Part shown: piece by piece, positions 11,323 through 58,225 of the stretch
Numbering within the stretch: the first letter of the stretch is position 1
How the letters are laid out: every line of letters starts with the position of its first letter
Made by a program: the position numbers and the translations under genes
The notes under the pieces: model-generated
Told to the model about the DNA's origin: nothing
Seen by the model: the letters and a program-made list of their open reading frames with translations, nothing else
The model's database searches: none
DNA from: Barthelona sp. PCE
Lineage: Eukaryota
Assembly: GCA_040285745.1 (NCBI GenBank)
Contig: JAUFOR010000008.1
Span: 868,001-932,000, forward strand
Direction of reading: 5' to 3'
Length of the DNA stretch: 64,000 nucleotides

Positions 11323-12143
11323 TTAGTAGTAACCAATCTTGTTAGCAATCATGACGGCTTCCTGATCCTCAGGGAGCTTAATGTAAGCCTTCTTGTCACC
11401 TTGAGGACGAACGAGGGTGTTAATTCTCTCGGCTTCAATCTGGTACAACTCCTTGAAAGCGTTCTTGATCTGGTTCTTGGTGGCACGGACATCAACAATG
11501 TAGGTGATGGTGTTGTGATCCTCAAGAAGCTTGACAGTCTTGGTAGTACTGTGAGGCATCTTTAAGATGGTGAAAGCATCAAGCTTAGGACCGTTTTTGA
11601 GAGGAGCACGCTCGTAACGGGGAGCACGAGTAAGCTTCAAGGCTAGGTGTTAGGGTTGTGTGTCAAAGGAAAACAGACAGCTGTATGAAAATCTTACAAC
11701 AAATTTCTTGAATGCATTTTGGTCTTAAAGCGAGCACGTGGGTGCACACTATGTTGTGTGAAAATACCCACTTCTAATAGTGTTGCATCCTGACTAAAAT
11801 GTACATAGAAAATACTGTAAATGTGTTTAACCTATCTCAATACACAATCTTGTGTAATAAAAACAAGCGATATAACACATTACCAGTTTCATGATTAATC
11901 ACAAAACACCATTAAGCACATTGCAGACATCAACAGAACAAAAATACGTATATTATGCTCAGTCACGTATATGCTTCAGTGTATTGGTGATTTGGTGTTG
12001 GTGTATCCAACTGCTGACCGTTTTCTTTGTTAAAAAATACTCTTAGGCTTGCGGAACTTGATGCTAGTTCTCTTCTTGTTAACGCGCGTTTTGACACCAT
12101 GCTTGACGGCGGCGGCGGTCTTCTGGGCTTGGGACTTGGCCAT
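11323..12143 (-). CDS. RPL23A: 60S ribosomal protein L23a/uL23, two exons (12143-12041 and 11642-11323)
   Basis: Exon 1 MAKSQAQKTAAAVKHGVKTRVNKKRTSIKFRKPK splices in frame to T-LKLTRAPRY...EDHNTITYIVDVRATKNQIK...INTLVRPQGDKKAYIKL. Confidence 0.95.
11643..12040 (-). other. Spliceosomal intron of RPL23A, 398 nt, phase 1
   Basis: GTATTT...CTAACACCTAG; removal restores the conserved FRKPKTLKL. Confidence 0.9.
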
Positions 12144-12542
12144 TTTTTGATATGAAAAAAGAAAGAAAGTGTAAAAGAAGTAGTTTTGTCGCACAATACA
12201 GATATATCAACTTTTACACCACCAAGCTCTTCTGATCTATGTTTATACCAATTCTATCGACTTGAAATTCATAGTACTAAAAACAAAGCCCCACTTTAAC
12301 ATTTTTTTGCTCTTTCAACACACTTTACACGCTGTTGATCTCAGCAATAACTCAGAATGTAGAGTTTCCATTGTTGTTTGAACGTTTTATGTGTTTTTGA
12401 GAATAATAAGCATACTTACCAAAAAGTTTTGATTATTGTGGGTTTCAAATAACCTTACTACGAATTTCGAAGCGATTCACCCAGTTGAACTCAATGTTTT
12501 TACATTTTTCACCTCTTTCAACAGTCATATTTTTTTTTTGAA

Positions 12543-14411
12543 ATGCCAAGGCCAATTACAACAGTAGTGGCCTCTTGTGGAAATGAAATAGCAATTAGCG
12601 ATGATCAGATTCAATATTTAAGTTGCAATTCTCATAAAATTTTTCATTTATCTTTCTGCAACGAAATTGATTCATCAAATCTTTCAGGTGATGAAGCTAG
12701 TGGGTTAATTAAGTGTTTATACTCAAAAAACTTATTTTATTCAGTTTTAGTAACAGAATATGTTGTATCAGTCAAATTTTTTGAGTTGTCCGACAATACA
12801 TTCATTTATAAGCATACTTCAACGATAGATAGGTCTCAATTTCAATCGGCTGATACCTTTATCTGCTTGAATGAGCAATGGTGTGTTGTTAAAACTGAAA
12901 AATGTGATGATCTGACTATAGTAGATCTTTGTTCAAAAGAGATTAAAGAATTTGAAGGAAGAAGACTTCGCTTTAGCAAGGGTATTGTACTTTGTAGTAG
13001 TGAAATGGATTTTGAAGCTGTTTTAATTAACAACTGTAATATATGTTTCAAGAGTTTGCCAAATATCTTACAACATAAGGAACCAACAGTTGTATTATCA
13101 CAACATCCAACCTTGTATTTCGATATAAATGATAATGATGAAGGTGTTCTACTAACATATGGTGATGAAGTAGTTCTTACCAATGAATGCTTACCAGATA
13201 AAGTTTGTCTTCACAATAGTATATACTTCACTGACTATATGATGTATGTGTTTACATGCATGGACACATGTTTACGTTATGATTACCCTCATTTTACTAG
13301 TAGATATGAAGATGCATCTACACAAGGTATTAATAACTTTTTTGTGTATGAAAACGAATTATTTGGATTCTTAAATGGATTTTTTAAGGTAAAATTTGAA
13401 GAAAAAACAAACAATATTATTATTCATAAAGATTCAAAAATCAAAATTCCTCAAATTGATGTCAGTTCTGCTGCATGTTTCAGTTCAGATTCAAATATAT
13501 TTTTGGTAGATGTTTTAACTGAAAAACCTTCTCTTTTATTTTGGTCGAAAGATGATGATTCTAAGAATACTGTTCATGATATTGGGCGTTGTTTTTCAAA
13601 GAATAACATTCATGTGATGCAGTTATATTGGGTCATCGAAACTCCTACATCTTTTCAGCTTTTTTTCGATAATGAAATTGTTTGTGAGAGAAGTAGAAAT
13701 GAATTACAAAGTAGTAATTTCAGAATTTTTGGATCGAGACAGCATATTTATATTTTGGGCAATGATTTTGTCAGTAATGGGATTTTCACTCTTCAATTCT
13801 CGGATATGGATGATTTGTTCAACCAACCATATTTTCTTGAAGTGACTGATTTTATAGTGTGGGTCTCAACAACATGCGGTATTTTTGCTTTAAATGTCAA
13901 TACAGTTGATGGAACACTGGAAACCCATTCTAGTTTTATTGTTGATGTTGATGATATTCCACATGCAAATGGTAACCACTTTAATCCCTCAACTGCAGTC
14001 ATGCAATGTGATGGAGAAATTAGTATATTAAAATACAATATCGTTAATAATTGTCTAAGTACGATGTATGTATGTCCCGTTGGTAGAGCAATTTTTTTGG
14101 ACGAAAATGTATTGCTGGTGAATGATGCGTTATATAGATTCACAGAAGCATCTGTTGAGAAGATACCTATCAATCTACCGCATATTTGTGGCGAACCAGA
14201 CCGTGTGCTCTCATGTAATCAACCACGTCAGCTGCATGTTATGCAACCAGTATTGGACGGTTTTGATATAGTAGTAGATGTGATTACGTTCAATGAGGAT
14301 TTTTTGTCTTATACAATGAGCCAAACACGTTTTAATCTGGTTTTTCTTATGGAAGCTAACAAAATCATAAATTTCAAGAATATTTGCCTGTATGACGCAC
14401 TCATCACATAA
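12543..14411 (+). CDS. Hypothetical 622-aa beta-strand-rich protein (possible divergent beta-propeller)
   Basis: Long AT-rich ORF with no recognised motif. Confidence 0.7.
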   Translation: MPRPITTVVASCGNEIAISDDQIQYLSCNSHKIFHLSFCNEIDSSNLSGDEASGLIKCLYSKNLFYSVLVTEYVVSVKFFELSDNTFIYKHTSTIDRSQFQSADTFICLNEQWCVVKTEKCDDLTIVDLCSKEIKEFEGRRLRFSKGIVLCSSEMDFEAVLINNCNICFKSLPNILQHKEPTVVLSQHPTLYFDINDNDEGVLLTYGDEVVLTNECLPDKVCLHNSIYFTDYMMYVFTCMDTCLRYDYPHFTSRYEDASTQGINNFFVYENELFGFLNGFFKVKFEEKTNNIIIHKDSKIKIPQIDVSSAACFSSDSNIFLVDVLTEKPSLLFWSKDDDSKNTVHDIGRCFSKNNIHVMQLYWVIETPTSFQLFFDNEIVCERSRNELQSSNFRIFGSRQHIYILGNDFVSNGIFTLQFSDMDDLFNQPYFLEVTDFIVWVSTTCGIFALNVNTVDGTLETHSSFIVDVDDIPHANGNHFNPSTAVMQCDGEISILKYNIVNNCLSTMYVCPVGRAIFLDENVLLVNDALYRFTEASVEKIPINLPHICGEPDRVLSCNQPRQLHVMQPVLDGFDIVVDVITFNEDFLSYTMSQTRFNLVFLMEANKIINFKNICLYDALIT

Positions 14412-14441
14412 ATATGTTTACATACACTATTATAAAAGTTG

Positions 14442-15629
14442 TTAAGCTTTGTTGAATAAGTTCTTCACTGACTTTGAATATTGACGCGTACCTTTAACCA
14501 ATCGATCAAAGTTAGCAGTGATTTCATTGATTTGAGTTTGTTTCTTAACAATTTTCTCTCTCAACTCCTCTACCTCTTCCTCCAAAGTTGTAATACGAAC
14601 GTTTGACGGTATGTCTTCTCTACGAATAAACATTGACGAACTCCTGGCCAACTCCAAAGATTTCTCATTCTCAGGCTTAAAATCTGTTAACTTATTGAGT
14701 ACTGTGGAAACAACGTTCTTCTCTTCAGTATCAACTTGCTCTTCCTCATTCTCTTCTCCATTAAAATCAACAACTGGTTTTTTATCACCAATTCTTGCCT
14801 TTAACTCATCTATTTGTTCTGTAAGTATCTTATTTTTCTCATTAATAACCTCAATCTCTGCTCTATGAGTTGATTCAATTCTTTCAATATGATTATTAAC
14901 GCGAGTATCGCACTCTTTTAAGTACTCTTTATGTTCTATCTTGGTCTTTTTCAGTGTCTCTTCCAACTGTTCAACCTTTTTCTCTAACTCTGAACACTCT
15001 TCGCTCTCCTGAATTTGAGCTCCATTATCAATTGTCCTTTCAATAACAATAGCCTCATTTGATGTCTCAAGATCCTTAATCTGCTCCTTCAGGCGTTTCA
15101 GATTGTCTAACTGCTCCTGTTGTAAAACCTTACGCTCCTCTAATACTTCATTCTTATACTTTTTGAAATCTTCCTGAACACCATCATGTTCCTTCTTCCA
15201 GTCCGCAAGCTTAAGCTGTAACATAACAACCTCCTGCTCCTTCTCCTTAACGATCGACTCGTAATCCACTAATGGTTTGAGATCAGGAACTTCTGGATCT
15301 TGCTGTGCTTGTAGCACAGGGGATGTGGCAATAACAACGGATGCACTAATAATGTCAATAAATTGCATGAGTGTTTTGTGATCAAACACAATTTGTCTAT
15401 TCTTAAGCTCCTGCTCACTATCAACATGTAAAAATGTCAAAATTGTGTTCATAACATATTGCGGTATGGAGCTTGGTATGTTGGATGATGATGTAAATGC
15501 AACAATGGGTGAGAGAGAGGTTTTTGTCTGATCCTCTGACCTCTCAATTTCGATTTCAGGCTGCTTCTTGTCTAAAAGATCCTTTAACTGCTCTTGCATG
15601 GCTGATAGCTTATCTATATCCTCAGTCAT
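14442..15629 (-). CDS. Coiled-coil protein of unknown function
   Basis: 395-aa ORF rich in E/K/Q heptads. Confidence 0.75.
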   Translation of the reverse strand: MTEDIDKLSAMQEQLKDLLDKKQPEIEIERSEDQTKTSLSPIVAFTSSSNIPSSIPQYVMNTILTFLHVDSEQELKNRQIVFDHKTLMQFIDIISASVVIATSPVLQAQQDPEVPDLKPLVDYESIVKEKEQEVVMLQLKLADWKKEHDGVQEDFKKYKNEVLEERKVLQQEQLDNLKRLKEQIKDLETSNEAIVIERTIDNGAQIQESEECSELEKKVEQLEETLKKTKIEHKEYLKECDTRVNNHIERIESTHRAEIEVINEKNKILTEQIDELKARIGDKKPVVDFNGEENEEEQVDTEEKNVVSTVLNKLTDFKPENEKSLELARSSSMFIRREDIPSNVRITTLEEEVEELREKIVKKQTQINEITANFDRLVKGTRQYSKSVKNLFNKA

Positions 15630-15709
15630 GTATTTTCACTGCCCAGAATGCACAAAAAATAAGAGATAGGGGGAGCAATTGTTTTATCAAATTCATCCCT
15701 ATATCAAAG

Positions 15710-16189
15710 ATGGTAAGACACCACCAGAAGCCTAGAAAAGGTTCCAAATACCATAAAAAGCATGTTGTTGAGAAAATTAAGCTCAGTAAGAAACGTAGTT
15801 TTTACAAAAAGTCCAAAATTATGAAGGGGTATAAGAAACTACTGGCAGAAACGGGCAGAAAGCTCGAGGGAACTGTGGAGACATATGAAGAAAGTGCAAA
15901 ATCAAGTAATGTTCCAGTTTTTAGAAAAAAGAAACAAGATGCACGTCGTATCAGAAAGGAGCAGAATCAAAAAAGTATTCTTGCCCGTGCATATGAAGAA
16001 TCTCAAGTAGAAAAAGAGCGTATTGCACAGGAAAAACAAGAAGCAAAAGAAAAGCGTGAACGATCAAGAAAGCGTCACTTAAAACGTAGTCACAGAAACC
16101 AGCCAAACCTCAAAAACATCACTAGAGACATTTTAGAAAAAGTTGAAGGTAATGAACGATATCAACATAAAGGTATTGTTCAACGATGA
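15710..16189 (+). CDS. rRNA-processing protein, FYV7/TAP26(CCDC59)-like
   Basis: Basic protein with KIMKGYKKLL and C-terminal NQPNLKNITRDILEKV. Start placed at ATG 15710. Confidence 0.65.
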   Translation: MVRHHQKPRKGSKYHKKHVVEKIKLSKKRSFYKKSKIMKGYKKLLAETGRKLEGTVETYEESAKSSNVPVFRKKKQDARRIRKEQNQKSILARAYEESQVEKERIAQEKQEAKEKRERSRKRHLKRSHRNQPNLKNITRDILEKVEGNERYQHKGIVQR

Positions 16190-17251
16190 TCAGATACTAT
16201 ATTCACAATGGACTCTAAACGATTTGATACGTTTTGAACGCTCCTTAGCCAGGTCCGGACTTGCTAACAATTGGACCATTGTGTTACTACGTAATGCTAT
16301 ACGATTTCTAGTTGTACTTAGCATTAAATCACTGATTGACTTTCGTACGTGATTTGAAATAAAATGCGCTGGTCTATGATGATTAGGATTTGCTTTTGTA
16401 ACGCTTTTAATACCTCTTCTTATTTTATATGGTATGGTAGTAACTCGATGTGGTGGAGTTGGAGGTATATTCATATTTTCAACAGATGGAAACACATAAT
16501 CTTTGGTAGAAGAGTTCGGATACATACAAAAAATATCAAAGATATCCTCCAACGCCCCATAATCATCCAAACCAATTTCTTGAACACCACGATAACTTAA
16601 ATTGTAATCTTCAATGGCTTGAACAATTGATTTCTTCTCTGGGAGAGAGTAGCACTCTTTTAAAACGTCAAGAGTGATAAGAACTTCGTTAGGAATTGCG
16701 TATTGACATAAATGTCGACTCGCGCTGATTGCGCTTCCATCATACTCACAATACCACTCTGCCAAACAAACATTACATTGAATATCTGCTGTATGAACTC
16801 CCCAAGATATATTAACCAAGCGAATGTCCTGTTCCAAACGAACTGAATTGGGTAATTTAGTAGCTCCTAAAGTTAAACCTTCAATTTTTGTCAATTCACA
16901 ATCTGCTTCCTGTACAAATATGAGCGCCTCGTGTGCATGTTCGAATACAAAGCATAGCTGAGACTTTGCAAGCATCTTTGCCCGTACTCCATGATAATTC
17001 CGTGCACATTTGCATAAACAGTCTTGTATTAGTTCTAAGTTTCCTTCGTTAACCGAAATATGCGATGGAAGAAGCCCGCAAACCACAGTACCCCTTCCGT
17101 CAACAAGAATTTCTGGTTCAAGATCATATCTCGATTCATCCCCCTTAACCCTTTTTAAAAACCGTAACAAGAGCCATGTGCACAACGGAACAAGCAAAGA
17201 AATGCCAAAAAACAAAACTCTGCTCATGAGTCGAAAAATGTAAAGCAGCAT
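16190..17251 (-). CDS. Membrane-anchored class III nucleotidyl-cyclase-like protein, probably catalytically degenerate
   Basis: N-terminal TM, then CFVFEHAHEALIF..., ISWGVHTAD and YDGSAISASRHLCQYAIPNEVLIT, which follow the cyclase fold pattern. Confidence 0.6.
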   Translation of the reverse strand: MLLYIFRLMSRVLFFGISLLVPLCTWLLLRFLKRVKGDESRYDLEPEILVDGRGTVVCGLLPSHISVNEGNLELIQDCLCKCARNYHGVRAKMLAKSQLCFVFEHAHEALIFVQEADCELTKIEGLTLGATKLPNSVRLEQDIRLVNISWGVHTADIQCNVCLAEWYCEYDGSAISASRHLCQYAIPNEVLITLDVLKECYSLPEKKSIVQAIEDYNLSYRGVQEIGLDDYGALEDIFDIFCMYPNSSTKDYVFPSVENMNIPPTPPHRVTTIPYKIRRGIKSVTKANPNHHRPAHFISNHVRKSISDLMLSTTRNRIALRSNTMVQLLASPDLAKERSKRIKSFRVHCEYSI

Positions 17252-20494: not shown

Positions 20495-21749
20495 ATGCCT
20501 ATCATTAAGGAACCAAAACGCGAGGGTCCCGGGCCAGGAGCATATGAAATCCCAAGCACTTTTTCTAACAAGGGTATGAATTTTTTCGTTGTTTAAACGT
20601 TTAGATATCTGTTAACACCTAGGTTTTACACTTGGTTCCAGAACTGCCAAGCGTGAGTTAGTTATTGATTCACCTGGACCTGCTGCATACTCTGTTAAGT
20701 CAAGCATCAGATCTGACATTGGATCTACTCTTGTGGGGCGTTATCGTAAGCCTAAGACCGAAGCCGACAAGGTACCTGGTCCCGGTGCATACTCAGTGAG
20801 TCGAGATTTCTATAAAGCAAAGCCAGCATATTCTTTAGGTAGCCGTAAAGCATCTGAGATGAAGCCTGATGAAACTCCCGGTCCTGGACAATACGTGGTC
20901 CCTTCTACAATTAAGAAGAACGGCGGTTTCTCTCTGGTTGGTCGTCACAAGGCTAAAAAATCAACTACCGAAAATGTTGGCCCAGGTCAATATAATTTGG
21001 ATCGTTCATTGGGTAAAAACAAACCCGCTTTTTCGATCAAATCACGTCATGAGGTTAAGAAGCCTATCGTTTCCGAACCTGGACCAGGTCAGTATACTTT
21101 ACCTTCATCTATCAAGACTAATGGTGGATTTTCTATTGTTGGTCGTTATAAGAGACCCCAGACTGAGCGTGCTGCTAATGTCGGTCCTGGTCAATACAGT
21201 ATCGATCGTTCATTGGGTAAAAACAAACCCGCATTCTCAATTAAAAGTCGGAAACCTCGTCCCAAGTCTTCCATGGCCGTTCCCGGTCCTGGCCAATATA
21301 AACTTGGTTCTACCCTCAAAAAGGGAGGATACAGCATCACCAGTCGTAGAAGTGAGTTGAAGAGTGATACTAACAGTGTAGGTCCTGGCCAGTACGAAAT
21401 TGATAGGTCGCTTGGAAAGAACAAACCTGCATACTCTTTGGGAAGCCGAAAGGCTATCGAACAGAAGGTGCCCGATACACCTGGTCCAGGTAACTATGCT
21501 ATTCCCAGTTCCATTGAGACTAAAAAGGGTTTCTCTTTGGTTGGTCGTTATAAGAGACCAAAGACTGAGTCAGCTAAAGCACCCGGACCAGGCGCTTATG
21601 ATATGAAGAGTACTATTCGTCAGGATCGTGGTTTTTCGATTAAGTCACGTAAGCCAATTATTCAGGAGGCTGATAACACACCTGGACCAGGCGCATATGA
21701 TCCCAAGAACTTGCAGACAGCACCTGCTTATAGTCTCGGAATGCGTTAA
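20495..21749 (+). CDS. SHIPPO/STPG (ODF3-like) PGPGxY-repeat flagellar protein, two exons (20495-20573 and 20623-21749)
   Basis: About 12 (P/V)GPGxY-type repeats; exon 1 MPIIKEPKREGPGPGAYEIPSTFSNK joins in frame. Confidence 0.9.
20574..20622 (+). other. Spliceosomal intron, 49 nt, phase 1
   Basis: GTATGA...TTAACACCTAG; removal joins the repeat frames. Confidence 0.85.
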
Positions 21750-25827: not shown

Positions 25828-25829
25828 AT

Positions 25830-32778: not shown

Positions 32779-34118
32779 ATGGTTGTGTCAGTATTTTTTG
32801 TTTTCACTCGTCGGGGAGAGATTATCTCGTACAAAAACTTCGATTCTGCTGTGAGGTATGTTCATAACAAAATAGATAAACAATGTTTTTTCTGACATTT
32901 AGTCGTACAGAAGTTTCAGAGTACAAGGCAAGCCTTATTGCTTCGAAAATCATCGATACACCCATCACACTTCAACCAGGAGGCACATCATATATCCACA
33001 AGCAACACAATGACGTTTACTGCTGTCTAGGGGGAAAAGGGGACATGGATATCGCACTGTCTTTTGAGTACCTTAATTCCCTCATCAAGATCTTTGAAGA
33101 CATTTTTGGGAAATTGTGTGAAGATAGTCTAAAGGATAATTTCACCAGTTACATGTTGCTTTTAGAAGAGACATGTGAGTTCGGTGTTGTGCAACAGACG
33201 AATCCCAGCATGCTTGCTGAAATTCTGGGTATTAGTGCAAACCAGCATCAAACAGAGAGTGATCTGAATGCAATCGCAATTCAAGCCACTGGTCAGATAT
33301 CATGGCGCCCCCGTGGAATCGAGCACGATCTTAACACCATATTCCTTGATATTATTGAGGAATGCAATATCTTGGTATCACAAACTGGTGAAATTTTGAA
33401 CAGTGAAATCACAGGAGCAATTGAGGCAAATAGTGTCCTCTCTGGTATGCCCGATTGCCGTCTCGGTCTTAACGATCAAATGTGGCTCAAATCAATGCGT
33501 TCTGCTGCTGCGACGGATTCTACACGTCCTGTTTTCGATCAGTGGTCATTCCACCAATGTGTTCGTCTTTCGGAGCTCGAGAGCGAGCGTGCTATCTGTT
33601 TTATTCCTCCGGATGGCGAGTTTACTCTTATGAACTATCGTGTTAACGCTAATGAATTCTTACCATTTAAGGTCAGTCCGCTTATCAACCAGGTTGGCTC
33701 AAAGTACGAGTACAGAGTAACTATAGAGTCTGACTTTTCAAACATTAACGCTGAAGCACGACAAGTAATTGTTAAGATTCCTGTACCTCACAATGCTGCT
33801 TCTGCTGACATATCTGTATCACAAGGTGGAGGTAAAGCTCGTTTTGAACCTGAAAATGGTGGTATGGTATGGCGTATTCTTGCGTTCGAGAACAGTAAGT
33901 CTTTTGTGCTTACAGCATTGGTACATTGTTTAGGAAGTGGTAATCAGAAAGTTTGGGATCGTCCTCCCATCTCTGTCGAGTTTATTTTACCTGGTGAGGC
34001 TGCAAGTGGGTTACACGTTGAATACCTTAAGGTTGTAAGTAGCGAAGACGATGAAGCTCAAAAGAAGGCGAGGTATATCACAAAGGCTAGTGAGAATCAG
34101 TACCTTATTCGACTGTAA
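32779..34118 (+). CDS. AP2M1: Adaptor complex mu subunit, AP-2 mu-like, two exons (32779-32855 and 32903-34118)
   Basis: TGQISWR, LSGMPDCRLGLND, FHQCVRL, FIPPDGEF, WDRPPIS; exon 1 MVVSVFFVFTRRGEIISYKNF. Confidence 0.8.
32856..32902 (+). other. Spliceosomal intron, 47 nt, phase 2
   Basis: GTATGT...CTGACATTTAG; removal restores the longin N-terminus. Confidence 0.88.
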
Positions 34119-34895: not shown

Positions 34896-35488
34896 TGTAA
34901 AAAAGTTAAAGAAAAGAGTTAATTTGTGTTAAAGGGTAAATGAATAAGTAGAAGTTATATAAAATAACTTAAAAAAGGTTTTGAATAAACGAAAAAAAAC
35001 GAATCCTAGTTTACTATACCTTATCATAGCTCCATTGATGTTGAGTCACCAATTTCGGTTTTTTGGGCCGTGTGTTAACTTTGTATATCGAATAGAGCAT
35101 GTAAACAATTTGGGCCAACAGCAGGCTAACGATTGTAATAACCTTTTTGGATAGCTTAACTTGTTGCAGCGTGGTAGAATGATGCATAGTTACCACATGG
35201 CAACTATTAATTTATCAGAATGAAAGGGGAATTACTCTTATTTCGTTTTTCTCAATTTACATTCATTTAGCGTAATGACAACTGAAAAACATAACATTAT
35301 ACATTTATAACGGAAATTTAGTATTTAATTGTATATTATACAGGATTTTGAAGACCTGGGTTGTAGATGATTTAGTAATTCTTTTTTTTACGAATGTCTA
35401 ACATTTTAGTGATGATAACTGTTCTTATTAGGTACTGTACTAGTATAAAAATCATGTTTAATTTACTTTTTGCTAATATTTCCTTTTC

Positions 35489-44911: not shown

Positions 44912-47173
44912 ATGAAGACTGTTCTCTCGATCATAAGCGCAATTCTATCGCTTGCGGGCTCCAGCTTTATTATTTTTATGTACCTGAGGTTTAAAGACAT
45001 CAGATCATTTCCATTCAAGCTTCTGACATATCTTTCGACTGCAGACCTATTTGCAGCAATCAGCCACTTTGTTCCATCATGTTTTTTGTCCGCAGTTATG
45101 CAGGAATTCTTTTTTACAGCGAGTTTCTTTTGGGTTTTAGTTATTTCACTGCATTCATATATTTTTGTTGTGAAAAGACTCAAGGCAGCCACAAAGTATG
45201 AGATCTTCTATCACCTAGGTAGTTGGGGTATTCCTCTACTCTTCACATTAATCTGTATTTTCTATGATGCCTTTGGTCCAACTGATTCTCCATGGTGTTG
45301 GATCGATTCTGAGTTCGTAGCGCTCCGTTGGCTGCTTTTTTACATTCCATTGATCATGATCATGATTATTCTTTGCTACTTCACGTTCCAGATCACTCGA
45401 GTGTTAAAGGCTAAAGGACAAGACATTAAGTTAGATTCAACTTCAAGTAACCTGGATAAGCAGGCAGCATCGCTGACAATTTATGTTATTGCATTCGTTA
45501 TTGTTAGAACTCCATCAGTTATTACTAGAACTATGGGTCTGTTTACCTCTGACAACATTATTCTATCATTTTTATCTCATCTCCATGCCCTGTGTAGCCC
45601 ATTGCAGGGATTTGTTAATAGTTTGCTCGTGTTAAGTAACCCACGTGTCAGACAACATGTGTTCAACAAACAGGTTCGTATTGCAACCCAATCGCAGCGT
45701 TTAAACCCATTACAGATTGCCAATGTATCATATAGCATCACAGCACCGCCTCAGTTTGTCGGAATGGGACATTCTACTCCATCTGATCAGTTAACACTAC
45801 GTATAGTAACTTTCAATGGTGGAAAAGCACCAATTCAACGCGAGGATGTGTTGAACCTTGTTGGAAGTGACCCCAACCATATTCTAGTGCTTGGGTTCCA
45901 GGAGATGGAGCAATCTCTGGAGGAGATAGTTTCATACATACCCCAACATTGGGGAATGCGTATTGTTGGATCTGAACAGCTTTGGGGCATTAAAATGGTT
46001 GTTTTGGTAGAGAACTCTCTCATTAATCACGTATCGGATGTATCTACTGATAAGGTTTCGACCGGAAAGGCTAATAATCTATTAGGAAATAAGGGTGCAG
46101 TTGGTGTGAGTCTAAAAGTGTATTCTGGAACGCTTGCTTTTGTTTGTTGTCATCTGGCAGCCAGGCCTGAAAGGAATAATCAACGTTTTGAGAACATTGG
46201 AAGGATTTTTAAGTGTCTTAATCTCAATTCAAACACAGGTGTGCGTGGAGTTCCACTGGATACTAAGTTTGATTGCCTGTTTGTTTTGGGAGATTTGAAT
46301 TTTAGAGTTAACGTTCCCTACGATCAGGCTGTACAATATGCCAATACAAACGCCTTCGGAGCATTATTGGCAAACGATCAATTAAAGCTTGCAATTGATC
46401 GCAACCAGGCATTGACTTCTTTTGAAGAAAGCTGCATCACATTCAAACCAACATATAAACACGAGGTTTCACATGGGGAGAGTACTCAACGTAAGTATTT
46501 CAACAAAGATAACCAGAGTCCCTCATATACTGATCGTGTACTGTTCTCACAAATTCGTAACGTACAGATAGTGCAGCGCGAATACAGTTCCATCACAATG
46601 CCAACAAGTGATCACAATGCAGTGGCTTTCGATTGTGATGTGGGTGTTCTGTGTCCAGCCACTAAGTCCTTACATTATCCTTGTCTGGCTGACATACAGA
46701 ACGTTGGTTTTAATGAACCTATCGTGTGTAGTGGTGTGCCTAATATCGCATTGGAGTTCATTGCAGACTTCATACTTAAGAGAGCCTCCACCCCATCAAA
46801 ATTAACAAGTTGCCCAAGTTGGTCAAATGATGAGATGCCACGTGTGGTTATTAACGGTATGACGCCGTATCTCCTGGCCGCCAAATCTATAACTGTTGTT
46901 GTACGTGACACAAATGCTGCTGTTGGTGAGAATGCCATTTTGGGTACTGCATCAATTCCCATGTTGGAATGTTGTAAGAAGGCCCGTCTTGGTTCCCGTG
47001 GTCAATTGATTGAGTTCAGCATTCCTGTTATGAATGCTGGTGTTGCTGTCGGAATGCTACGCATTTCTGTATCTCTTTATTTCTTCAGAGAAACATCATC
47101 GTTAAATGCTCCGCAAATGCAAGCCAACATGAATCTTTCACCACAACTAAAACGCCTGTCTTCTCGTTTGTAA
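44912..47173 (+). CDS. 7TM cAMP-receptor-like GPCR fused to an inositol polyphosphate 5-phosphatase and a C2-like domain
   Basis: Seven TMs with WGIP, WCWI and LQGFVNS, then GNKGAV, HLAA, GDLNFRV, PTYK, PSYTDRVL and SDH, all in one uninterrupted frame. Confidence 0.92.
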   Translation: MKTVLSIISAILSLAGSSFIIFMYLRFKDIRSFPFKLLTYLSTADLFAAISHFVPSCFLSAVMQEFFFTASFFWVLVISLHSYIFVVKRLKAATKYEIFYHLGSWGIPLLFTLICIFYDAFGPTDSPWCWIDSEFVALRWLLFYIPLIMIMIILCYFTFQITRVLKAKGQDIKLDSTSSNLDKQAASLTIYVIAFVIVRTPSVITRTMGLFTSDNIILSFLSHLHALCSPLQGFVNSLLVLSNPRVRQHVFNKQVRIATQSQRLNPLQIANVSYSITAPPQFVGMGHSTPSDQLTLRIVTFNGGKAPIQREDVLNLVGSDPNHILVLGFQEMEQSLEEIVSYIPQHWGMRIVGSEQLWGIKMVVLVENSLINHVSDVSTDKVSTGKANNLLGNKGAVGVSLKVYSGTLAFVCCHLAARPERNNQRFENIGRIFKCLNLNSNTGVRGVPLDTKFDCLFVLGDLNFRVNVPYDQAVQYANTNAFGALLANDQLKLAIDRNQALTSFEESCITFKPTYKHEVSHGESTQRKYFNKDNQSPSYTDRVLFSQIRNVQIVQREYSSITMPTSDHNAVAFDCDVGVLCPATKSLHYPCLADIQNVGFNEPIVCSGVPNIALEFIADFILKRASTPSKLTSCPSWSNDEMPRVVINGMTPYLLAAKSITVVVRDTNAAVGENAILGTASIPMLECCKKARLGSRGQLIEFSIPVMNAGVAVGMLRISVSLYFFRETSSLNAPQMQANMNLSPQLKRLSSRL

Positions 47174-49614: not shown

Positions 49615-51074
49615 ATGATTGATATTGAAATTTTACGAAACGACCCTGAACGGGTCAAAGAATCCGAGAAAAACCGTTTCACCGTGGGAGGCGTTGAAAA
49701 CGTCGATGAGGTTCTCAGGCTCGACAATGAGTATCGTGAACGTATATTTCCGGGTGCTTCAGTGCAATTTGAGCGTTGTATTTAACGTACATATTGTTTG
49801 AAGTGATTTTTACACTTTACTAATTCTTAGTGAACAGAGAACTTGAACAAGCTAAGGGCAACCGTAACACTTTATCTAAGCAGTTTGGCCGCATGAGAAA
49901 GGCCGGAGAAGATATCACTGAGCTTGCCGCCACTCTTAAAGATCTTAAGGTACGCATTCCCGAGTTAGAAGAGCGTGTTGTTGAGGTACTCAAGGAGAGG
50001 GACCATAAATTTAACCAGATTGGTAATCTCCTGGATGAGACTGTGCCAATTGCTGAAGATGAGGAAGAAATCCACACAATCTCCGAGAATTTGACTGAAG
50101 ATATTACTGAGGGTGTCAAGGAGGGCCTCACACACGTTGATTTGCTTTACCGTATTGGTGGTGTTGATTACGATCGTGGTGTCAAGGTCATGGGTAACCG
50201 TGGTTACTATCTTAAGGGAATTGCTTCCCGCCTCAATCAAGCTATCATCAGCTACTCCCTTGACTTCCTTCGTGAACGCGAATTCACTCAGATCGAAGTT
50301 CCTATGCTTATGAAGCGTGAGGCCATGCAGAAGTGTGCTCAGCTTGATGATTTCCACGAGCAACTCTACAAGGTTGTTGAGAAGGATGATGATCCCGAGG
50401 ATAAGCTGAAGTACCTCATTGCTACTTCTGAGCAGCCTCTTATCGCTATGCATATGGATGAGATGATGATTCCCACTGATCTTCCCAAGCTTTATGCTGG
50501 TTACTCCAGCTGTTTCAGAAAGGAGGCAGGATCCCAGGGTAGAGACCAGGCTGGTATCTTTAGAATTCATATTTTCCAGAAGGTTGAGCAGATTGTCTAT
50601 TGTTTACCTGAGGAAAGCCCTGAATATTTCAACAAGTTGATCACCAACGCTGAAGATTTTTTCAAATCCCTTGGTCTTCCTTATCGTGTTGTCGCTATTC
50701 CTTCCGGTGCTCTTAACAACGCCGCCGCCATCAAGTACGATCTTGAGGCTTTTTTCATGGGTTCCGGTCAGTACCGTGAGCTTGTTTCCTGCTCCAACTG
50801 TACCGATTATCAGAGCAGAAATCTGATGATCCGTATGCCCCGTGACACTGAGACACGTAAGGTGCCTTATGTTCACCTTCTTAACTCCACTCTTTGCGCC
50901 ACTTCCCGTGCCCTCTGCTGTATTCTTGAACGTTACCAGACTGAAGAAGGTGTTGTCGTTCCTGAAGTTCTTCGTCCTTATATGGGCGGTATGGAGATGA
51001 TGCCTTTTGTCATCGACCATAACTATGAGTCTGTTGGTGAGCGTCTTAACAAGAAGAAGCGTAGCAAGAAGTAA
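49615..51074 (+). CDS. SARS1: Cytosolic seryl-tRNA synthetase, two exons (49615-49741 and 49831-51074)
   Basis: Exon 1 MIDIEILRNDPERVKESEKNRF; YLIATSEQP, CFRKEAG, ELVSCSNCTDYQSR. Confidence 0.97.
49742..49830 (+). other. Spliceosomal intron, 89 nt, phase 1
   Basis: GTATAT...CTAATTCTTAG; removal gives LDNEYRELNRELEQ. Confidence 0.9.
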
Positions 51075-52501: not shown

Positions 52502-52693
52502 AACAATAGTGTGTGAAGTTTGAGATGCCCAAAATTTTTTTGAAAAGAGGAATGAATGAGGAAAACAGCTTTTTATTATGCTTTTGAACATAATACTCTT
52601 TTGCACTTGTGCACTTGTGCTAAAATCTTTTGAATTCCCACATCTCACTTTTAAATTTCTTCATATACATTTTTTAACAACATCTAAAAATAT

Positions 52694-53512
52694 ATGTTTT
52701 TTACAGGGCATCTTCTAATGTCAGTAATTGGTGCATTTTTCATCAGTAGGCTGGCAACAACGTCTAAGCAAAAACTCAGAGATGAAAAACGTAACACAGT
52801 TGGTATTACAGTTCTAAAATTCCGTTATTGCTGTTTTTGGGGTATTATAGCCAATCTAATCAACGTTGATCACTTTTTTACAGATAGTCTCAACAAGTTA
52901 AACCAAAATCCCCTTGGTACAGCAGAACTGCATCTTTATGCAGCTTCAATAGCATTCATTTTCTTTTTATTAGGACAATTTATCCCTTTCATTCGCACGC
53001 CAGCCTGGAGCCTATTTGGTGGTATCTTATCTCATCATTTTTGTGATTCTATTTGGTACAAATTCTTCTCTGTCAAATCTGATAAGGCTTTATTCATCAG
53101 TCAAGGATCATTTGATTTTGTATTGATCATTATGCTCATCATCATGGCACTTTCTTTTAAAGATTTTACTAAGAAACATCTTTTTGTTTTGTTAATTTTG
53201 TGGATATTATCTTTTGCACTTTTTGTTGTAATAATTTCAGTTTTAAAATGTGATTTAGTCAATATATGTAACGACTTACAGCAATACCATCTTATTGATG
53301 TTGGTTTTTATGCTCTTATGAGTGTACTGTATCCTTGGCTTGGTTGGTTTAAGCGTAAAGTTATAAAAGAAACAATTGTAATTGACCAAGAAGGAAGGCA
53401 ACTCTCTAAGATGACCAGCGTAGTTTCTTTGGGAGAAGATGATGAAGGAAAGTTAATACCAACCACAAAAACATCAAAAATTAGAGATATCGGAACAGTT
53501 GAGAAGAACTAA
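52694..53512 (+). CDS. Multi-pass membrane protein, YdjM/TMEM267-like metal-dependent hydrolase
   Basis: N-terminal GH, NVDHF, LH and SHHFCD motifs within TM segments. Confidence 0.6.
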   Translation: MFFTGHLLMSVIGAFFISRLATTSKQKLRDEKRNTVGITVLKFRYCCFWGIIANLINVDHFFTDSLNKLNQNPLGTAELHLYAASIAFIFFLLGQFIPFIRTPAWSLFGGILSHHFCDSIWYKFFSVKSDKALFISQGSFDFVLIIMLIIMALSFKDFTKKHLFVLLILWILSFALFVVIISVLKCDLVNICNDLQQYHLIDVGFYALMSVLYPWLGWFKRKVIKETIVIDQEGRQLSKMTSVVSLGEDDEGKLIPTTKTSKIRDIGTVEKN

Positions 53513-53621
53513 TTTTTTATTAGGATAATGTTTCTGCCTGTGGTGTATTCTCACATTTCTATTATTGTGTTTGTGTTTTTATTTGATAAATGTTGTAAAT
53601 TTTTTCTTCTTCCTTTTTTAT

Positions 53622-54188
53622 ATGCAAGACACAATATTTACCGTAAACTTTGGGGTCTTTAAGCATTCCGTAGGGTCGTGCTGTTTGGAGTACGATAAAA
53701 GTGTTTTAACGGGATCTCTCACACAACCGGTTCAATGCCGAGATCCTAAGGGCTATAACAAGGGTTTGCTGAACATATACATTGAAAGCGCATGTGGAGA
53801 CGAGAAATCAGACATTGATCAGTATATTGAAGTGCTGAACGATGTTGCTTCACAAATAGTTGATTGGCGACAATATCCCAGTTCCCTCTTTAAGCTCAAC
53901 ATAGCAATTATCTCCAAAAACGAAGAATCTTTGCTCAGCGCACTTTGTAATTGCATGTTTGGAATTTTACTGGACAGTGGAATGGAATTAAAACACTTAG
54001 CTGGTGCACTGCAGTTCGGTGACAATCTAGTAGTAGTTTCCGAAGCAAATGAACTGATAAAGTTAATCTGTCACGACATTGATTTGGAAAAACTTGATTT
54101 TGAATTTAATGGATGGTTAGAGAGTGCTGGAGAACTAGGTAGGAGAATTCAAGAAAGTTACGCATTAAAAATGAAAGAGTTTCTGTGA
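53622..54188 (+). CDS. RNA exosome RNase-PH-like subunit (Rrp46-like)
   Basis: GVFKHSVGSC, YPSSLFKLNIAII, LLSALCN...LLDSG. Confidence 0.65.
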   Translation: MQDTIFTVNFGVFKHSVGSCCLEYDKSVLTGSLTQPVQCRDPKGYNKGLLNIYIESACGDEKSDIDQYIEVLNDVASQIVDWRQYPSSLFKLNIAIISKNEESLLSALCNCMFGILLDSGMELKHLAGALQFGDNLVVVSEANELIKLICHDIDLEKLDFEFNGWLESAGELGRRIQESYALKMKEFL

Positions 54189-55958
54189 TTAAAACATGTT
54201 TTCAATTAGGCAAAAAGGTTGAGTACCTACAAGTGAGATCGAACCATTAGCACTTGAAATAAACATCCGTTCATTACTGAGTCCCTCCATATCACGGTAT
54301 ACAGTCTCATTGCGTTGTGTGTGAATTAATCGAACCCTGGCATTGTACTTATCTTGGTCAAAGTGATACTTTGCATACCACTCACCGAGTATAACACTGC
54401 CGGCTAGACAAGAATCTCCTCCGTAAAGACTGTATTTACGTGTATTAACAAGTGTTATTTCACATTCATTGATCTCGTAAGTATGAATCTCAGTTGGAAA
54501 GACTACCACAACCATAGTTTCGGACAAGAAGCCTATTTCCATGATATGGTGGTTCAAATTGATTCTTTTGCCAAGGCAGACATCAGTGGAACATGAGTTA
54601 ATGGTAAGAAAATTGCAACGACTGAATGCTACACAAATCACTAATCCTTTAATGATAATCTTTGAAATATCATACGTGAACGGTTCAGGTTCCCACAGTT
54701 TTTTCCCCGTCTCTCTTTCATATGCAATTAGCTTTTTCTTTGTATGTAAAATGACAATACGTTCATTAATTAAAAATTCCCCATCATCCATCTCACCACC
54801 TAGAACAATGTCAGATGTTGTTTTGGTGTCAACATTGAGGCATCTGATAGTGAATCCCATCTCATAATATCTGTAACACACGCAACGAAGAGAGGGACAA
54901 AATTGAATTTCACCCATAATCCTTTCTGTTTCCAAAGGAATAAACTGAAATTCTCCAGTATCCAACATATATACAACGATTTCACCTGTTTTTGAATTAT
55001 ATGCAATGAATTCACGTCTCTCATCACACAAATTCAAAGGTTTTGTAACAATAAATGCTTTATGTTTCGGTCCTGACAACATACGTTCAGATAAAATCAC
55101 ATCACCGTGCCAAAGAGCTAGTGGTTGAGCTTTAATCGCTTCAACGGACTTACACTCATCACCACCACTAATTTGTATGGTGATAATTTCATTTTCATGT
55201 CCAATTCGAAGTCTCACCTCATTGTTCTCTACAACTACCAAATCAACAGGATTGTTCAAGTAATAGTCGTTGTCTTCATCATAGCTACCTTCAAACTCTT
55301 TGAAAGAAAAAACAAATTGTCTCTCTTCAAGATTATAAATCTGAACATGCGGTTCATAAACACATGAAATAGCAACGTACCCGTTTCGTACGGATGTGAT
55401 AATCGACGCGCCTTCAGAAAAAACAGTTTCTTCATTGTTTAACTGCCCAACATAACATTCTGATTCATTGTTAATAAAGATATAACCGTCAGAATACATT
55501 ATGTTTTTGAATTCAGTACAATTATACCAACTAATACCAGTTCTTAGTATAGATTCAGCTTCAGCATTTGTGAATGAACGTATAGACTTGGAGTTGACAT
55601 TGTATACATATAAAACTTCGTTTTTTCCATCAATACAAACCATCTCACCATTAGAATCGACGTTTGTTGGCCAGTAGATCTGAGGAATAATGCTTTTAGG
55701 AATAGTTAAAACATCATTCAACTTAAGGCCTTCTTTAGATGGCATCCAGATGCTTCCATCATCATTCACAGCGACTGTCTCATTGAATGCTTCATATAGA
55801 TCATCAAAGATAGGGTTGCCTCCTCTTGAAAGATTAACAACATCATAAGACTCAGCCCATTCATTCAAAATAAATTTTCCCGATATTGAAGCTTTTGACG
55901 GGTACCAAGTGGAGACTGTCGTCAAGTCTTTTATCCTTTTAATTGTTCCTGATTCCAT
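54189..55958 (-). CDS. Hypothetical beta-propeller-like protein
   Basis: 589 aa with repeated VYN/AY..xTG blade-like motifs (LIAYERETGKKLW). Confidence 0.7.
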   Translation of the reverse strand: MESGTIKRIKDLTTVSTWYPSKASISGKFILNEWAESYDVVNLSRGGNPIFDDLYEAFNETVAVNDDGSIWMPSKEGLKLNDVLTIPKSIIPQIYWPTNVDSNGEMVCIDGKNEVLYVYNVNSKSIRSFTNAEAESILRTGISWYNCTEFKNIMYSDGYIFINNESECYVGQLNNEETVFSEGASIITSVRNGYVAISCVYEPHVQIYNLEERQFVFSFKEFEGSYDEDNDYYLNNPVDLVVVENNEVRLRIGHENEIITIQISGGDECKSVEAIKAQPLALWHGDVILSERMLSGPKHKAFIVTKPLNLCDERREFIAYNSKTGEIVVYMLDTGEFQFIPLETERIMGEIQFCPSLRCVCYRYYEMGFTIRCLNVDTKTTSDIVLGGEMDDGEFLINERIVILHTKKKLIAYERETGKKLWEPEPFTYDISKIIIKGLVICVAFSRCNFLTINSCSTDVCLGKRINLNHHIMEIGFLSETMVVVVFPTEIHTYEINECEITLVNTRKYSLYGGDSCLAGSVILGEWYAKYHFDQDKYNARVRLIHTQRNETVYRDMEGLSNERMFISSANGSISLVGTQPFCLIENMF

Positions 55959-55995
55959 AAAAAAGAGTTAATAACAAAAACAGGATTTACAGCTT

Positions 55996-57510
55996 CTAGT
56001 CATGATGAGGAAGAGCAATATTGTGCTTATGGAACCACTCGTTGAACTGACGAGGTACTTCAGCCAGCACACAATGAGCTAAATCACCCATAAGGTACTC
56101 ACCATCTTCTGACATATAATCACGCAGACAAACAAATTGGACGCAATCACGTTCGCACTCTTCGCCTTCTTCACTCTTTAAAGCAGACAAATCGACATCA
56201 CCATCAAGAATATGTAATTTATCAAAATTATTGTTTCCAAGACCGCAAATAATGATAGAGATGGGTAATTTGGCAGCAGCGTTGATGGCGTTGATAGTTT
56301 GTGTGAAATCCGTTGGCTCACCGTCAGTCAAAATGAGAACAATATGATAGACCACCTTGTCATTCTCCAATTCCGTATTCACACGTTCAATAGCATGGTT
56401 GATTGTGGGTGAAAAGCATGTGGGTCCAGACATTTCTACTAAATCAAGAGCTCTTCGAAGATGATCTCCAACAGTTTCGATACCGTGCAGCTCTTCAATA
56501 TCATGCACTAAAGAGATTGGGAAACAGTGTTCAACACGTCCCGAAGGGCACATTGCGCCGAATAGGAAGGCTGGAATCATTTGATCACTGTCATAAGGTT
56601 CTAATATTGACCCTATAGCCTTTAAGGCTTTTAGGTATGGACTTTCTGTCTTCTCATCTGAAAAGTGAAGTGAGTCCTTCTGATAGTGTACAATGTTTGA
56701 TTTAGTACAATCAATGGAGCACATGAACTGAATTTCAGTACCAGCCTGAACATATTCAAGGAAACTATGTTTCTTTTCTATCGATCCGTTCCACTCAATT
56801 GTGGATGTGGATGTTCCTTCGAAACGCATAATACGTTCCTCTAATAACTTACTGACAGAGGCGTATACAGTCGAATAAACTATGCCTCTCGTTGATCGAA
56901 TCGTCCATTGAATTTCTCTTTCGATATCACCGTTACATAGAGAGCTGATGCTGATGTCCATTGGTGCTAATTTCAATATATCATCTTCACCAACATCACG
57001 TGTTGAAAAATGATGTGAACGATAACTGGTTGTGTAAGTGTCTTCTCCTGGGGTCTTACATGAAGCAACAAGGTGGAGTGTGACGCTGGAACGACAGCAG
57101 CCTAATGGAGGAGGAGTGAAATCATTCAGCTTCATGTCAAGATGCAAAATATCCATACAAACTTTTTCCTCTTCAATATTCACAACCAACCACTTTCTTT
57201 TGAAGTTTCCGGTGGACTTAAGAGCCTCAACAGGGGTGAATGTTACGGTATCTTCAATATCTTTAGAATTTGAATAAATCTCAACCTTTAAATGCTGTTT
57301 AACCTCAAATGTGTATGATGCAGTGAATGACTCATACGTAACAAGCCCATTATCCTCTGATAATATCCTGTTATCCTCAGAATCATATGTTTCTAATAGT
57401 TGTTCTTCTTCATTGCCGAGTTTTTCGTAGACAAGAACCTTTGAAACTGCATGATCAAAGTGTTCAGTGTCGACTGAGATGGTAACTTGTAAGTTAGGCC
57501 TTAACTGCAT
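55996..57510 (-). CDS. Copine (two C2 domains plus vWA)
   Basis: SLCNGD, IDCTKSN, YDSDQMIPAFLFGA, GPTCFSP, ILTDG, RDCVQFV, LAEVPRQ. Confidence 0.93.
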   Translation of the reverse strand: MQLRPNLQVTISVDTEHFDHAVSKVLVYEKLGNEEEQLLETYDSEDNRILSEDNGLVTYESFTASYTFEVKQHLKVEIYSNSKDIEDTVTFTPVEALKSTGNFKRKWLVVNIEEEKVCMDILHLDMKLNDFTPPPLGCCRSSVTLHLVASCKTPGEDTYTTSYRSHHFSTRDVGEDDILKLAPMDISISSLCNGDIEREIQWTIRSTRGIVYSTVYASVSKLLEERIMRFEGTSTSTIEWNGSIEKKHSFLEYVQAGTEIQFMCSIDCTKSNIVHYQKDSLHFSDEKTESPYLKALKAIGSILEPYDSDQMIPAFLFGAMCPSGRVEHCFPISLVHDIEELHGIETVGDHLRRALDLVEMSGPTCFSPTINHAIERVNTELENDKVVYHIVLILTDGEPTDFTQTINAINAAAKLPISIIICGLGNNNFDKLHILDGDVDLSALKSEEGEECERDCVQFVCLRDYMSEDGEYLMGDLAHCVLAEVPRQFNEWFHKHNIALPHHD

Positions 57511-57696
57511 GGAAAAATTTGAAATCAGGGAAGACAATTCATTTGTTTCACGCGCATCCTTTAATATAACCCTTAAGTATGTAGTTAACCATGATCAGAA
57601 CACATTTAACATCAATATTTTCAGTATGTGTGAAGAAACATAACATAATCTGCATTAGTGTTTTCACGCCATATCTTTGTACATTTTTAAGACTTC

Positions 57697-58225
57697 ATGA
57701 GCTCAACCAGCGGTTCCAAGATGCAATCTTTCAATAACGAACTTGTTCAGTGTATATTTTTTTTTGTTGAGTGTAGCAGTTTGTGAGTAAGCAAACATGC
57801 ATGGGTAATATAGCGCCACGCTTTGAGAGGGCCATATTCGGTTGGTGCACCGGTTTTTACATTTTTGCTTTATACCTGCAGAAAGAAAATTGTTTACTGC
57901 TTGCGATAGATACATTCAACATTTTATATTAACGTTATCCTAACATTTAGGCATTGGGGATTTACGAACCAAGCGCGATGATCTCGGCCTTGAGATTGAG
58001 AAGGGTAAAGAAGAAAAAGCCAAGGTACAGGCTGATTTAAAGGTCTTGAGTGATAGATTGAGCCGCCTTAATGAGCAGATTCAGCGAAAGACTGCCACAA
58101 TGAATGAATATACCAGAACTATTCAAGAATCAGAAAATGCTTTTGAAAAAATCATGGAAAGTAGTCAAACTTTGCTTACAGTTTTGAAACGCGAAAGTCA
58201 TTCCTTAGCCAAGCATTCCAACTAA
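57697..58225 (+). CDS. SSNA1: SSNA1/DIP13 microtubule-associated coiled-coil protein, two exons (57697-57751 and 57951-58225), 109 aa
   Basis: Spliced product [27 protein letters not shown]...[27 protein letters not shown]; absent from the ORF track. Confidence 0.92.
57752..57950 (+). other. Spliceosomal intron, 199 nt, phase 1
   Basis: GTATAT...CTAACATTTAG; removal restores NNELVQCI. Confidence 0.9.

Follow-up and report, generated by a model that had tools for sequence, protein, structure and literature searches.

Three of the five introns in the 64-kb window (the whole stretch of Barthelona sp. PCE DNA that was analysed) are predicted to be closed by an RNA helix formed between sequences just inside their two ends, and with moderate confidence we infer that this helix forms in the cell, that splicing depends on it and that it probably helps the splice sites to pair. 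The closing helices of the RPL23A (uL23) and SSNA1 introns are stronger than those of control sequences. All of the structures are thermodynamic predictions, and the sample consists of the three long introns of this one window (Table 1).

Table 1. Introns of the window and the predicted helices of the three long introns (positions in the window).
Feature	Position	Strand	Details
RPL23A (uL23) intron	11643-12040	-	398 nt, phase 1; donor GTATTT; acceptor CTAACACCTAG
RPL23A closing helix, 5′ arm	12013-12029	-	intron positions 12-28; in minimum-energy and centroid folds
RPL23A closing helix, 3′ arm	11664-11681	-	intron positions 360-377; 21 nt short of the 3′ splice site
SHIPPO-repeat (PG-rich flagellar) gene intron	20574-20622	+	49 nt; acceptor TTAACACCTAG
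AP-mu (adaptor-complex mu subunit) gene intron	32856-32902	+	47 nt; acceptor CTGACATTTAG
SerRS intron	49742-49830	+	89 nt, phase 1; acceptor CTAATTCTTAG
SerRS intron hairpin	49756-49804	+	intron positions 15-63; outer arms 49756-49768 / 49793-49804
SSNA1 intron	57752-57950	+	199 nt, phase 1; acceptor CTAACATTTAG
SSNA1 closing helix, 5′ arm	57765-57775	+	10 pairs, 1 G-U
SSNA1 closing helix, 3′ arm	57911-57921	+	29 nt short of the 3′ splice site
SSNA1 second-tier 5′ arm	57786-57794	+	partner 57890-57898; in minimum-energy and centroid folds
SSNA1 second-tier 3′ arm	57890-57898	+	partner 57786-57794

Barthelona is placed in the BaSk clade, the sister group of Fornicata (genome paper); it is free-living and has a genome of 10.2 Mb. 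All five introns described in the initial annotation were found in the window, with the lengths it had given (47, 49, 89, 199 and 398 nt), and its junctions for the three long introns are identical to those of the public gene models. A GTAT donor is common to all five, as is an 11-nt branch/acceptor motif of fixed layout, YTRAY-N4-AG, in which the branch A always lies 8 nt from the 3′ end of the intron. This acceptor motif is matched 17 times in the window; five of these matches are the introns, and the remaining 12 are followed by open frames of at most 141 codons. Nothing in the whole window reached the gathering score of an Rfam model, and no snRNA turned up in the 64 kb.

The proteins are consistent with these junctions, which Pfam and PDB alignments cross without a gap. 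Exon 1 of RPL23A corresponds to positions 1-34 of the Ribosomal_L23eN profile and exon 2 matches Ribosomal_L23, with a spliced translation identical to the 140-aa public protein P0134. For SSNA1, the public protein P0121 (109 aa) has exactly the sequence of the spliced translation, and the homologues P0122 and P0128 run unbroken over the splice junction. In SerRS, positions 1-40 of the Seryl_tRNA_N profile fall in exon 1 and positions 44-107 in exon 2, and its spliced translation equals public protein P0135 (456 aa) residue for residue. Removal of the SHIPPO-gene intron restores the frame between 26 upstream and 374 downstream codons, with SHIPPO-rpt matches (Pfam) on both sides of the intron, while exon 2 of the AP-mu gene matches Adap_comp_sub and Clat_adaptor_s. 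These two short introns are uniform in length (n=2), and neither shows significant structure (z +0.30 for the SHIPPO-gene intron and +0.38 for the AP-mu intron). A candidate 5′ UTR intron preceding a DEAD-box gene (35321 or 35331 to 35409) was excluded from all counts: its spacing is CTAAC-N5-AG rather than N4, it lacks a closing stem (z +0.5 to +0.6) and it shows no sign of splicing. Were it genuine, it would count as an unclamped long intron.

A donor-like GTATTT is present at 49778, at the tip of the SerRS hairpin. Its use would give an in-frame 53-nt intron, adding 12 aa to yield a 468-aa protein. We rejected 49778 as the main SerRS donor because the 89-nt splice form fits the solved SerRS chains 2dq0 and 6gir without gaps and yields the public protein; minor use of this donor may nevertheless occur.

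Folding was carried out with the splice motifs forced to be single-stranded, and the controls were shuffles as well as random segments of the window bearing the same splice motifs. The complementary arms reported in the initial annotation form the outermost helices of the predicted minimum-energy folds of all three long introns, and the end-closing helix is also present in all three centroid folds. The folds reproduced the unpaired ends previously proposed, leaving 11+21 nt (32 nt) outside the outermost helix in RPL23A, 13+29 nt (42 nt) in SSNA1 and 14+26 nt (40 nt) in SerRS. Folding at 20 °C did not change the unpaired ends of RPL23A and SSNA1, and gave 10+21 nt for SerRS. The RPL23A helix comprises 16 pairs, including one G-U, with one U.U mismatch and one bulged base, while the SerRS hairpin has 20 pairs, five of them G-U.

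The strength of these helices was compared with controls using statistic windows (35/45 nt and 30/50 nt) that were picked after the folds had been seen. The closing duplex of RPL23A has an energy of -22.1 kcal/mol, which 0.33% of the shuffles and 3% of the random window segments (300 each) also reached; that of SSNA1, at -23.0 kcal/mol, was matched by 0.2% of 500 shuffles and 1.6% of 500 random window segments. For SerRS (-13.3 kcal/mol) the corresponding figures were 10.6% and 13.6% of 1000 each. The expectation that the long introns pair end to end beyond the level of shuffled sequences was thus borne out for RPL23A and SSNA1 (closing-duplex p 0.002-0.03) but not for SerRS taken alone (p about 0.1; closing-duplex energy p 0.11-0.14). 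Fisher's method applied to the closing-duplex energies gave a combined p of 8e-5 with shuffles as the reference and of 0.0037 with random window segments. A second measure, the ensemble probability of pairing between the first 30 and the last 50 nt (calculated from base-pair probabilities), gave a similar picture: it was 1.00 for RPL23A (attained by 1/60 and 0/60 controls), 1.00 for SSNA1 (0/200 and 0/200) and 0.997 for SerRS (9% and 10% of 400 controls), so that the values of the two longest introns were matched by one of 520 controls. The control mean was 0.36-0.47 at the lengths of RPL23A and SSNA1, and 0.70 at 89 nt.

The helices also carry a strand signature. As the initial annotation had pointed out, their G-U pairs work on the sense strand: the non-Watson-Crick positions of the three closing helices include seven G-U (1, 1 and 5 in RPL23A, SSNA1 and SerRS) and no A.C (sign test 0.008), and the sense closing duplex is more stable than the antisense one in every case (-22.1 vs -17.0 kcal/mol for RPL23A, -23.0 vs -14.8 for SSNA1 and -13.3 vs -11.1 for SerRS). 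Furthermore, the helices lie farther from the branch motif than random ones, their 3′ tails measuring 21, 29 and 26 nt where the controls have a median of 14-15 nt. A metagenome scan with RPL23A exon 2 yielded four loci, the best with 42% protein identity; none of them is a relative, and they were set aside for covariation.

On the other hand, the near-constant effective length that had been put forward as evidence for the stems did not survive comparison with controls, since controls of 89, 199 and 398 nt give the same or a shorter unpaired length. Against observed values of 32, 42 and 40 nt, the controls of each of the three lengths had a median of 29-31 nt with a 5-95% range of 20-56 nt, and in 56-94% of them the unpaired length was at least as short as that observed. 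The leftover unpaired length is therefore not evidence, being no shorter than in controls. Nor is the spacing truly constant, because the donor-to-branch linkers of the clamped introns (24 nt in RPL23A, 34 nt in SSNA1 and 32 nt in SerRS) are shorter than the 39 and 41 nt of the short introns. It is a known principle that the ends of any folded RNA tend to be near each other (Yoffe et al., PMC3017586), and our control median of about 30 nt agrees with its description of an unpaired exterior that is independent of sequence length. However, a lone outer helix of very high stability and a bias to sense-strand G-U pairs do not follow from this principle. The case for Giardia, Spironucleus and Trichomonas has likewise been argued from a similar unpaired length after folding; because random sequences share this property, such claims ought to be based on helix stability, covariation or probing.

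[quoted passage not shown] A literature search covering abstracts and main texts found no published account of barthelonid introns. On our analysis, Barthelona would be a further case of this known phenomenon, with a putative function for the structure. Like Giardia lamblia (Hudson 2012, cited in PMC6679479), it is intron-poor, with an extended 5′ splice site and a branch point fused at a fixed distance to the 3′ splice site, and its long introns pair internally, leaving 32-42 nt single-stranded between donor and acceptor where 35-45 nt are described for Giardia (PMC6679479). The motifs differ, being VTATGTT and VCTRACACRCAG in Giardia (PMC6679479) and GTAT and YTRAY-N4-AG in Barthelona. Moreover, unlike in Giardia, no trans-spliced intron was seen in the Barthelona window or is known, and Barthelona is not a diplomonad.

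Spironucleus and Trichomonas have short introns of uniform length (40-42 nt in S. vortens, 43 nt in S. salmonicida and about 25 nt in T. vaginalis), with stem-loops predicted in the longer ones that bring the spacing back to a similar value (PMC6679479), as in Barthelona. By this measure, which concerns introns longer than 50 nt, the Barthelona introns fall within the metamonad class (32, 42 and 40 nt vs 47 and 49 nt), but the controls do so as well, so that the comparison is non-discriminating. The same class is also marked by a reduced spliceosome, with few snRNP proteins and divergent snRNAs. Spironucleus introns are only 40-67 nt long and have short stems (PMC6679479), whereas the Barthelona clamps span up to 366 nt. 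Folding with splice motifs forced single-stranded is common to PMC6679479 and the present analysis; the main text of that paper reports no shuffle or random control, while the controls used here show spacing to be uninformative and helix strength to be informative.

The zipper stems of Saccharomyces cerevisiae, which act in the same manner, offer a second comparison. [quoted passage not shown] An excess of stability over shuffles is shared by two of the three Barthelona stems. The yeast stems start at least 10 nt from the donor (PMC12350175), and those of RPL23A, SSNA1 and SerRS, with 16, 10 and 20 pairs, begin after 11, 13 and 14 nt. The yeast definition further specifies at least 20 nt from stem to branch point and 42-85 nt of total linkers (PMC12350175); in Barthelona the distances from stem to branch A are 13, 21 and 18 nt, and the linkers total 24, 34 and 32 nt. 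The geometry is thus tighter than the yeast A-complex model allows. [quoted passage not shown]

It is unlikely, in our judgement, that generic folding and chance account for the pattern, with the ends meeting as in any RNA and the three strong outer helices being a matter of luck with no role in splicing. Much of what we observed is indeed common in controls: besides the short unpaired lengths and the published proximity of RNA ends discussed above (PMC3017586), a single exterior helix was present in 31-49% of controls, an end-pairing probability of at least 0.5 was reached by 37-46% of the 199- and 398-nt controls and by 72-75% of the 89-nt controls, and about 10% of controls equalled the SerRS helix. 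Chance does not readily yield the combined p values for helix strength, the near-certain end pairing of the two longest introns or the 7:0 ratio of G-U to A.C, and a like pattern has been described in related lineages (PMC6679479). It is also unlikely that the arms are by-products of intron growth, namely the ends of self-complementary inserts (foldback or inverted-repeat elements, or palindromic duplications) by which short introns were lengthened and which are tolerated, since they fold away, and not selected for splicing. Such an origin would fit the location of the arms immediately interior to the essential splice motifs, the nature of the SerRS insert as a single nearly perfect 49-nt hairpin, and the fact that both short introns resemble a common minimal intron, as do the unpaired portions of the long introns. 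However, BLAST of the five introns against the 64-kb window brought up chance matches of 10-16 nt only and no second copy of an arm or an intron interior, repeats make up only 4.46% of the genome (genome paper), and inspection by eye revealed no clear target-site duplication at the RPL23A or SerRS arms, the SSNA1 flanks being T-runs and uninformative. Mismatches that are G-U on the sense strand only argue, moreover, for upkeep at the RNA level.

The suggestion that the interiors form a functional RNA, such as a small RNA or a protein-binding element autoregulating RPL23A splicing, with the outer helix as part of that RNA or of its processing signal, draws on the whole-intron fold of RPL23A, which at -104.6 kcal/mol is far more stable than its shuffles (-84.4 +/- 5.6 kcal/mol; z -3.6; 0/100 shuffles as low), and on autoregulatory structures published for yeast ribosomal-protein introns. 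We consider it unlikely, since the same RPL23A fold energy was attained by 11% of random window segments, the whole-intron fold of SSNA1 has no unusual stability (z -0.89), and a motif scan identified no C/D box pair in the introns. In addition to the absence of Rfam matches at gathering score, relaxed thresholds gave only chance-level hits in the RPL23A intron and none in that of SSNA1; the best was to a C/D-box model, with 16.9 bits against a cut-off of 39 and an E value of 2.8.

The reading we favour is a helix that helps splice-site pairing. Barthelona sp. PCE has few spliceosomal introns with a rigid layout, consisting of a GTAT donor, a fused YTRAY-N4-AG motif and a default length of about 47-49 nt. 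In longer introns, a sense-strand RNA helix is predicted to extend from 11-14 nt past the donor to 10-18 nt before the branch motif, and its formation would loop out the extra 49-366 nt. Donor and branch point would then be linked by 24-34 single-stranded nt and one helix end, a spacing near the 39-41 nt of the short introns, and the clamp would probably aid a reduced spliceosome in pairing the two.

If the clamps are functional, Barthelona would bring a peculiar mode of splicing, in which a fixed donor-to-branch spacing is set by the intron's own structure, to the sister lineage of Fornicata. A bolder extension, to which we assign only a small chance, is that clamp-dependent splicing is common to intron-poor metamonads, with barthelonids as a third deep branch beside diplomonads and parabasalids, that their compact spliceosome takes a donor-to-branch distance of only about 24-41 nt, below the 42-nt minimum of the yeast A-complex model, and that split genes joined in trans by arms of this type are hidden in the Barthelona genome. 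Functional clamps would strengthen the view that the structured-intron mode goes with spliceosome reduction across metamonads, and would also make Barthelona, which is free-living and has a very small genome, a convenient organism in which to study them.

Pattern and reading-frame scans recovered exactly the five introns described in the initial annotation (Table), all of which begin with GTAT, end in an 11-nt YTRAY-N4-AG motif (17 matches in the window, 5 of them the introns) and sit in the opening 18-42 codons of the gene; phase 1 is shared by three of the five. A 5′ bias of this kind is typical for intron-poor genomes. The predicted junctions rest on homology and on identity to public proteins: positions 1-34 of Pfam Ribosomal_L23eN fall in RPL23A exon 1 and the profile crosses the junction, Seryl_tRNA_N positions 1-40 and 44-107 fall in SerRS exons 1 and 2, the SerRS junction aligns without gaps to the solved SerRS chains 2dq0 and 6gir, and SSNA1 homologues show no break at theirs. 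Translations spliced at the window coordinates were 100% identical to public proteins of 140 (RPL23A), 109 (SSNA1) and 456 aa (SerRS); NCBI labels the SSNA1 match, obtained with exon 2 as query, a hypothetical Barthelona sp. PCE protein, and the RPL23A search gave a second protein of this type.

Table. Introns and their closing duplexes, with one further gene in the window
Feature	Coordinates	Strand	Length (nt)	Closing duplex (kcal/mol)	Shuffles reaching it	Window segments reaching it
RPL23A intron	11643-12040	-	398	-22.1	0.33% of 300	3% of 300
SHIPPO-repeat gene intron	20574-20622	+	49			
Adaptor mu subunit intron	32856-32902	+	47			
SerRS intron	49742-49830	+	89	-13.3	10.6% of 1000	13.6% of 1000
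SSNA1 intron	57752-57950	+	199	-23.0	0.2% of 500	1.6% of 500
Bax1-I family gene (inside high-G+C region 61000-64000)	61484-62176					

The complementary arms reported for the three long introns are present at the stated coordinates and form the outermost helix in all three, in minimum-energy and centroid folds alike. The reported unpaired lengths of 11+21 (RPL23A), 13+29 (SSNA1) and 14+26 nt (SerRS) were reproduced; folding at 20 C left the first two unchanged and gave 10+21 nt for SerRS. In the same order, the closing helices contain 16, 10 and 20 pairs, of which 1, 1 and 5 are G-U, and their 1x1 mismatches are U.U, U.U and A.A, never A.C. The two short introns are without structure (z +0.30 for the SHIPPO-repeat gene, +0.38 for adaptor mu). 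The unpaired donor-to-branch linkers are 24, 34 and 32 nt in the long introns; the short ones have 39 and 41 nt. Linker length is similar rather than constant.

As evidence, the near-constant unpaired length does not hold. For the comparison with controls, 7 nt at the start and 11 nt at the end of each sequence were kept single-stranded. Dinucleotide shuffles of the intron interior and random same-length window segments placed between the same intron ends left a median of 29-31 exterior unpaired nt (5-95% range 20-56) at 89, 199 and 398 nt alike, and the observed 32 (RPL23A), 42 (SSNA1) and 40 nt (SerRS) were equalled or undercut by 56-94% of controls. Because controls give it at every length, the leftover length is a generic property of folded RNA, consistent with the statement in the available text of PMC3017586 that RNA ends lie close whatever the length. 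Since neither "shuffl" nor "random" occurs in the main text of PMC6679479 (Hudson et al. 2019), which describes structured long introns in related protists, the same caveat may extend to the published cases.

The strength of the pairing, with statistic window sizes picked after the folds had been seen, is a different matter. Closing-duplex energies combined by Fisher's method gave p = 8e-5 with shuffles as the reference and 0.0037 with window segments. Ensemble end-pairing probability was 1.00, 1.00 and 0.997 for RPL23A, SSNA1 and SerRS, versus control means of 0.36-0.47 at the two greater lengths and 0.70 at 89 nt; for RPL23A, 1/60 and 0/60 controls did as well as the intron, for SSNA1 0/200 and 0/200, and for SerRS 9% and 10% of 400. 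The stems of RPL23A and SSNA1 are real statistical outliers; the SerRS stem, taken alone, is only suggestive. Placement also differed: the real helices stop short of the 3′ end by 21, 29 and 26 nt, versus a control median of 14-15 nt, and leave 11-14 free nt after the donor and 10-18 before the branch motif, whereas control structures begin nearly at the forced-unpaired motifs.

The sense-strand reading of the stems, first proposed from their G-U pairs, is supported by the 7:0 ratio of G-U to A.C in the closing helices (sign test, 0.008) and by antisense duplexes weaker than the sense ones (-17.0, -14.8 and -11.1 kcal/mol for RPL23A, SSNA1 and SerRS). Selective maintenance of the pairing in the RNA would produce this excess, while an inverted repeat decaying as DNA would not show such a bias; further copies of the intron interiors or arms were absent from the 64-kb window. 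A scan of the introns found no C/D box pair, and Rfam gave nothing above chance for the whole window or for the RPL23A and SSNA1 introns. The RPL23A intron does fold more stably than its shuffles (z -3.6) into several stable interior domains, but 11% of random window segments equalled this stability; its interior could conceivably serve a separate function.

The tip of the SerRS hairpin carries a donor-like GTATTT at 49778 (+); splicing from it would shorten the intron to 53 nt, keep the reading frame and add 12 residues. As the main form, the 89-nt intron is favoured by homology and by the public 456-aa protein; the hairpin might mask the 49778 donor, or this might be a minor alternative site. 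A candidate intron of 79 or 89 nt (GTAT...CTAAC-N5-AG) lies at 35321-35409 (+) in the 5′ leader of a DEAD-box helicase gene. No closing stem was found in it (z +0.5 to +0.6); were it genuine, it would count as a long intron that lacks a clamp.

The window has high gene density, about 39% G+C and the standard genetic code (a 2638-codon frame at 3-7916 is the same under table 6); the assembly, as described in the accessible part of PMC11316075, comprises 10.2 Mb in 8 contigs at 40.3% G+C. At about 61,000, G+C makes an abrupt step up, from about 33% to 52-65%, and remains high as far as the window end; on both strands of 61000-64000, several long frames overlap one another and lack a Pfam match. 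A single 753-aa frame at 44912-47170 (+) joins a Dicty_CAR/7tm seven-transmembrane receptor domain to an Exo_endo_phos2 phosphatase-type domain, and its predicted product is a receptor-enzyme fusion.

Barthelonids fall in a clade sister to Fornicata, and RNA-seq was used to train the Barthelona gene models, according to the same portion of PMC11316075, in whose main text "intron" appears once, in the methods. Our literature search, which covered main texts and extended to work on the structure of metamonad and Skoliomonas introns, turned up no account of introns in barthelonids. The accessible text of PMC6679479 reports the same long-intron pattern in four species (Giardia, S. vortens, S. salmonicida and T. 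vaginalis), with spacings of 35-45 nt in Giardia, 41 nt in S. salmonicida and 25-44 nt in T. vaginalis; it proposes that spacing matters to a streamlined spliceosome and regards long internal pairing as a probable first step to trans-spliced halves. The best-tested analogue is the yeast zipper stem, but the Barthelona stems fall outside its positional definition, given in the consulted part of PMC12350175 as a stem-to-branch-point distance of at least 20 nt and linkers of 42-85 nt in total. The initial observation of introns and stems was accurate, and its reading as a spacing constraint and a precursor of trans-splicing repeats the hypothesis of PMC6679479. The Barthelona introns join an already known pattern of structured long introns.
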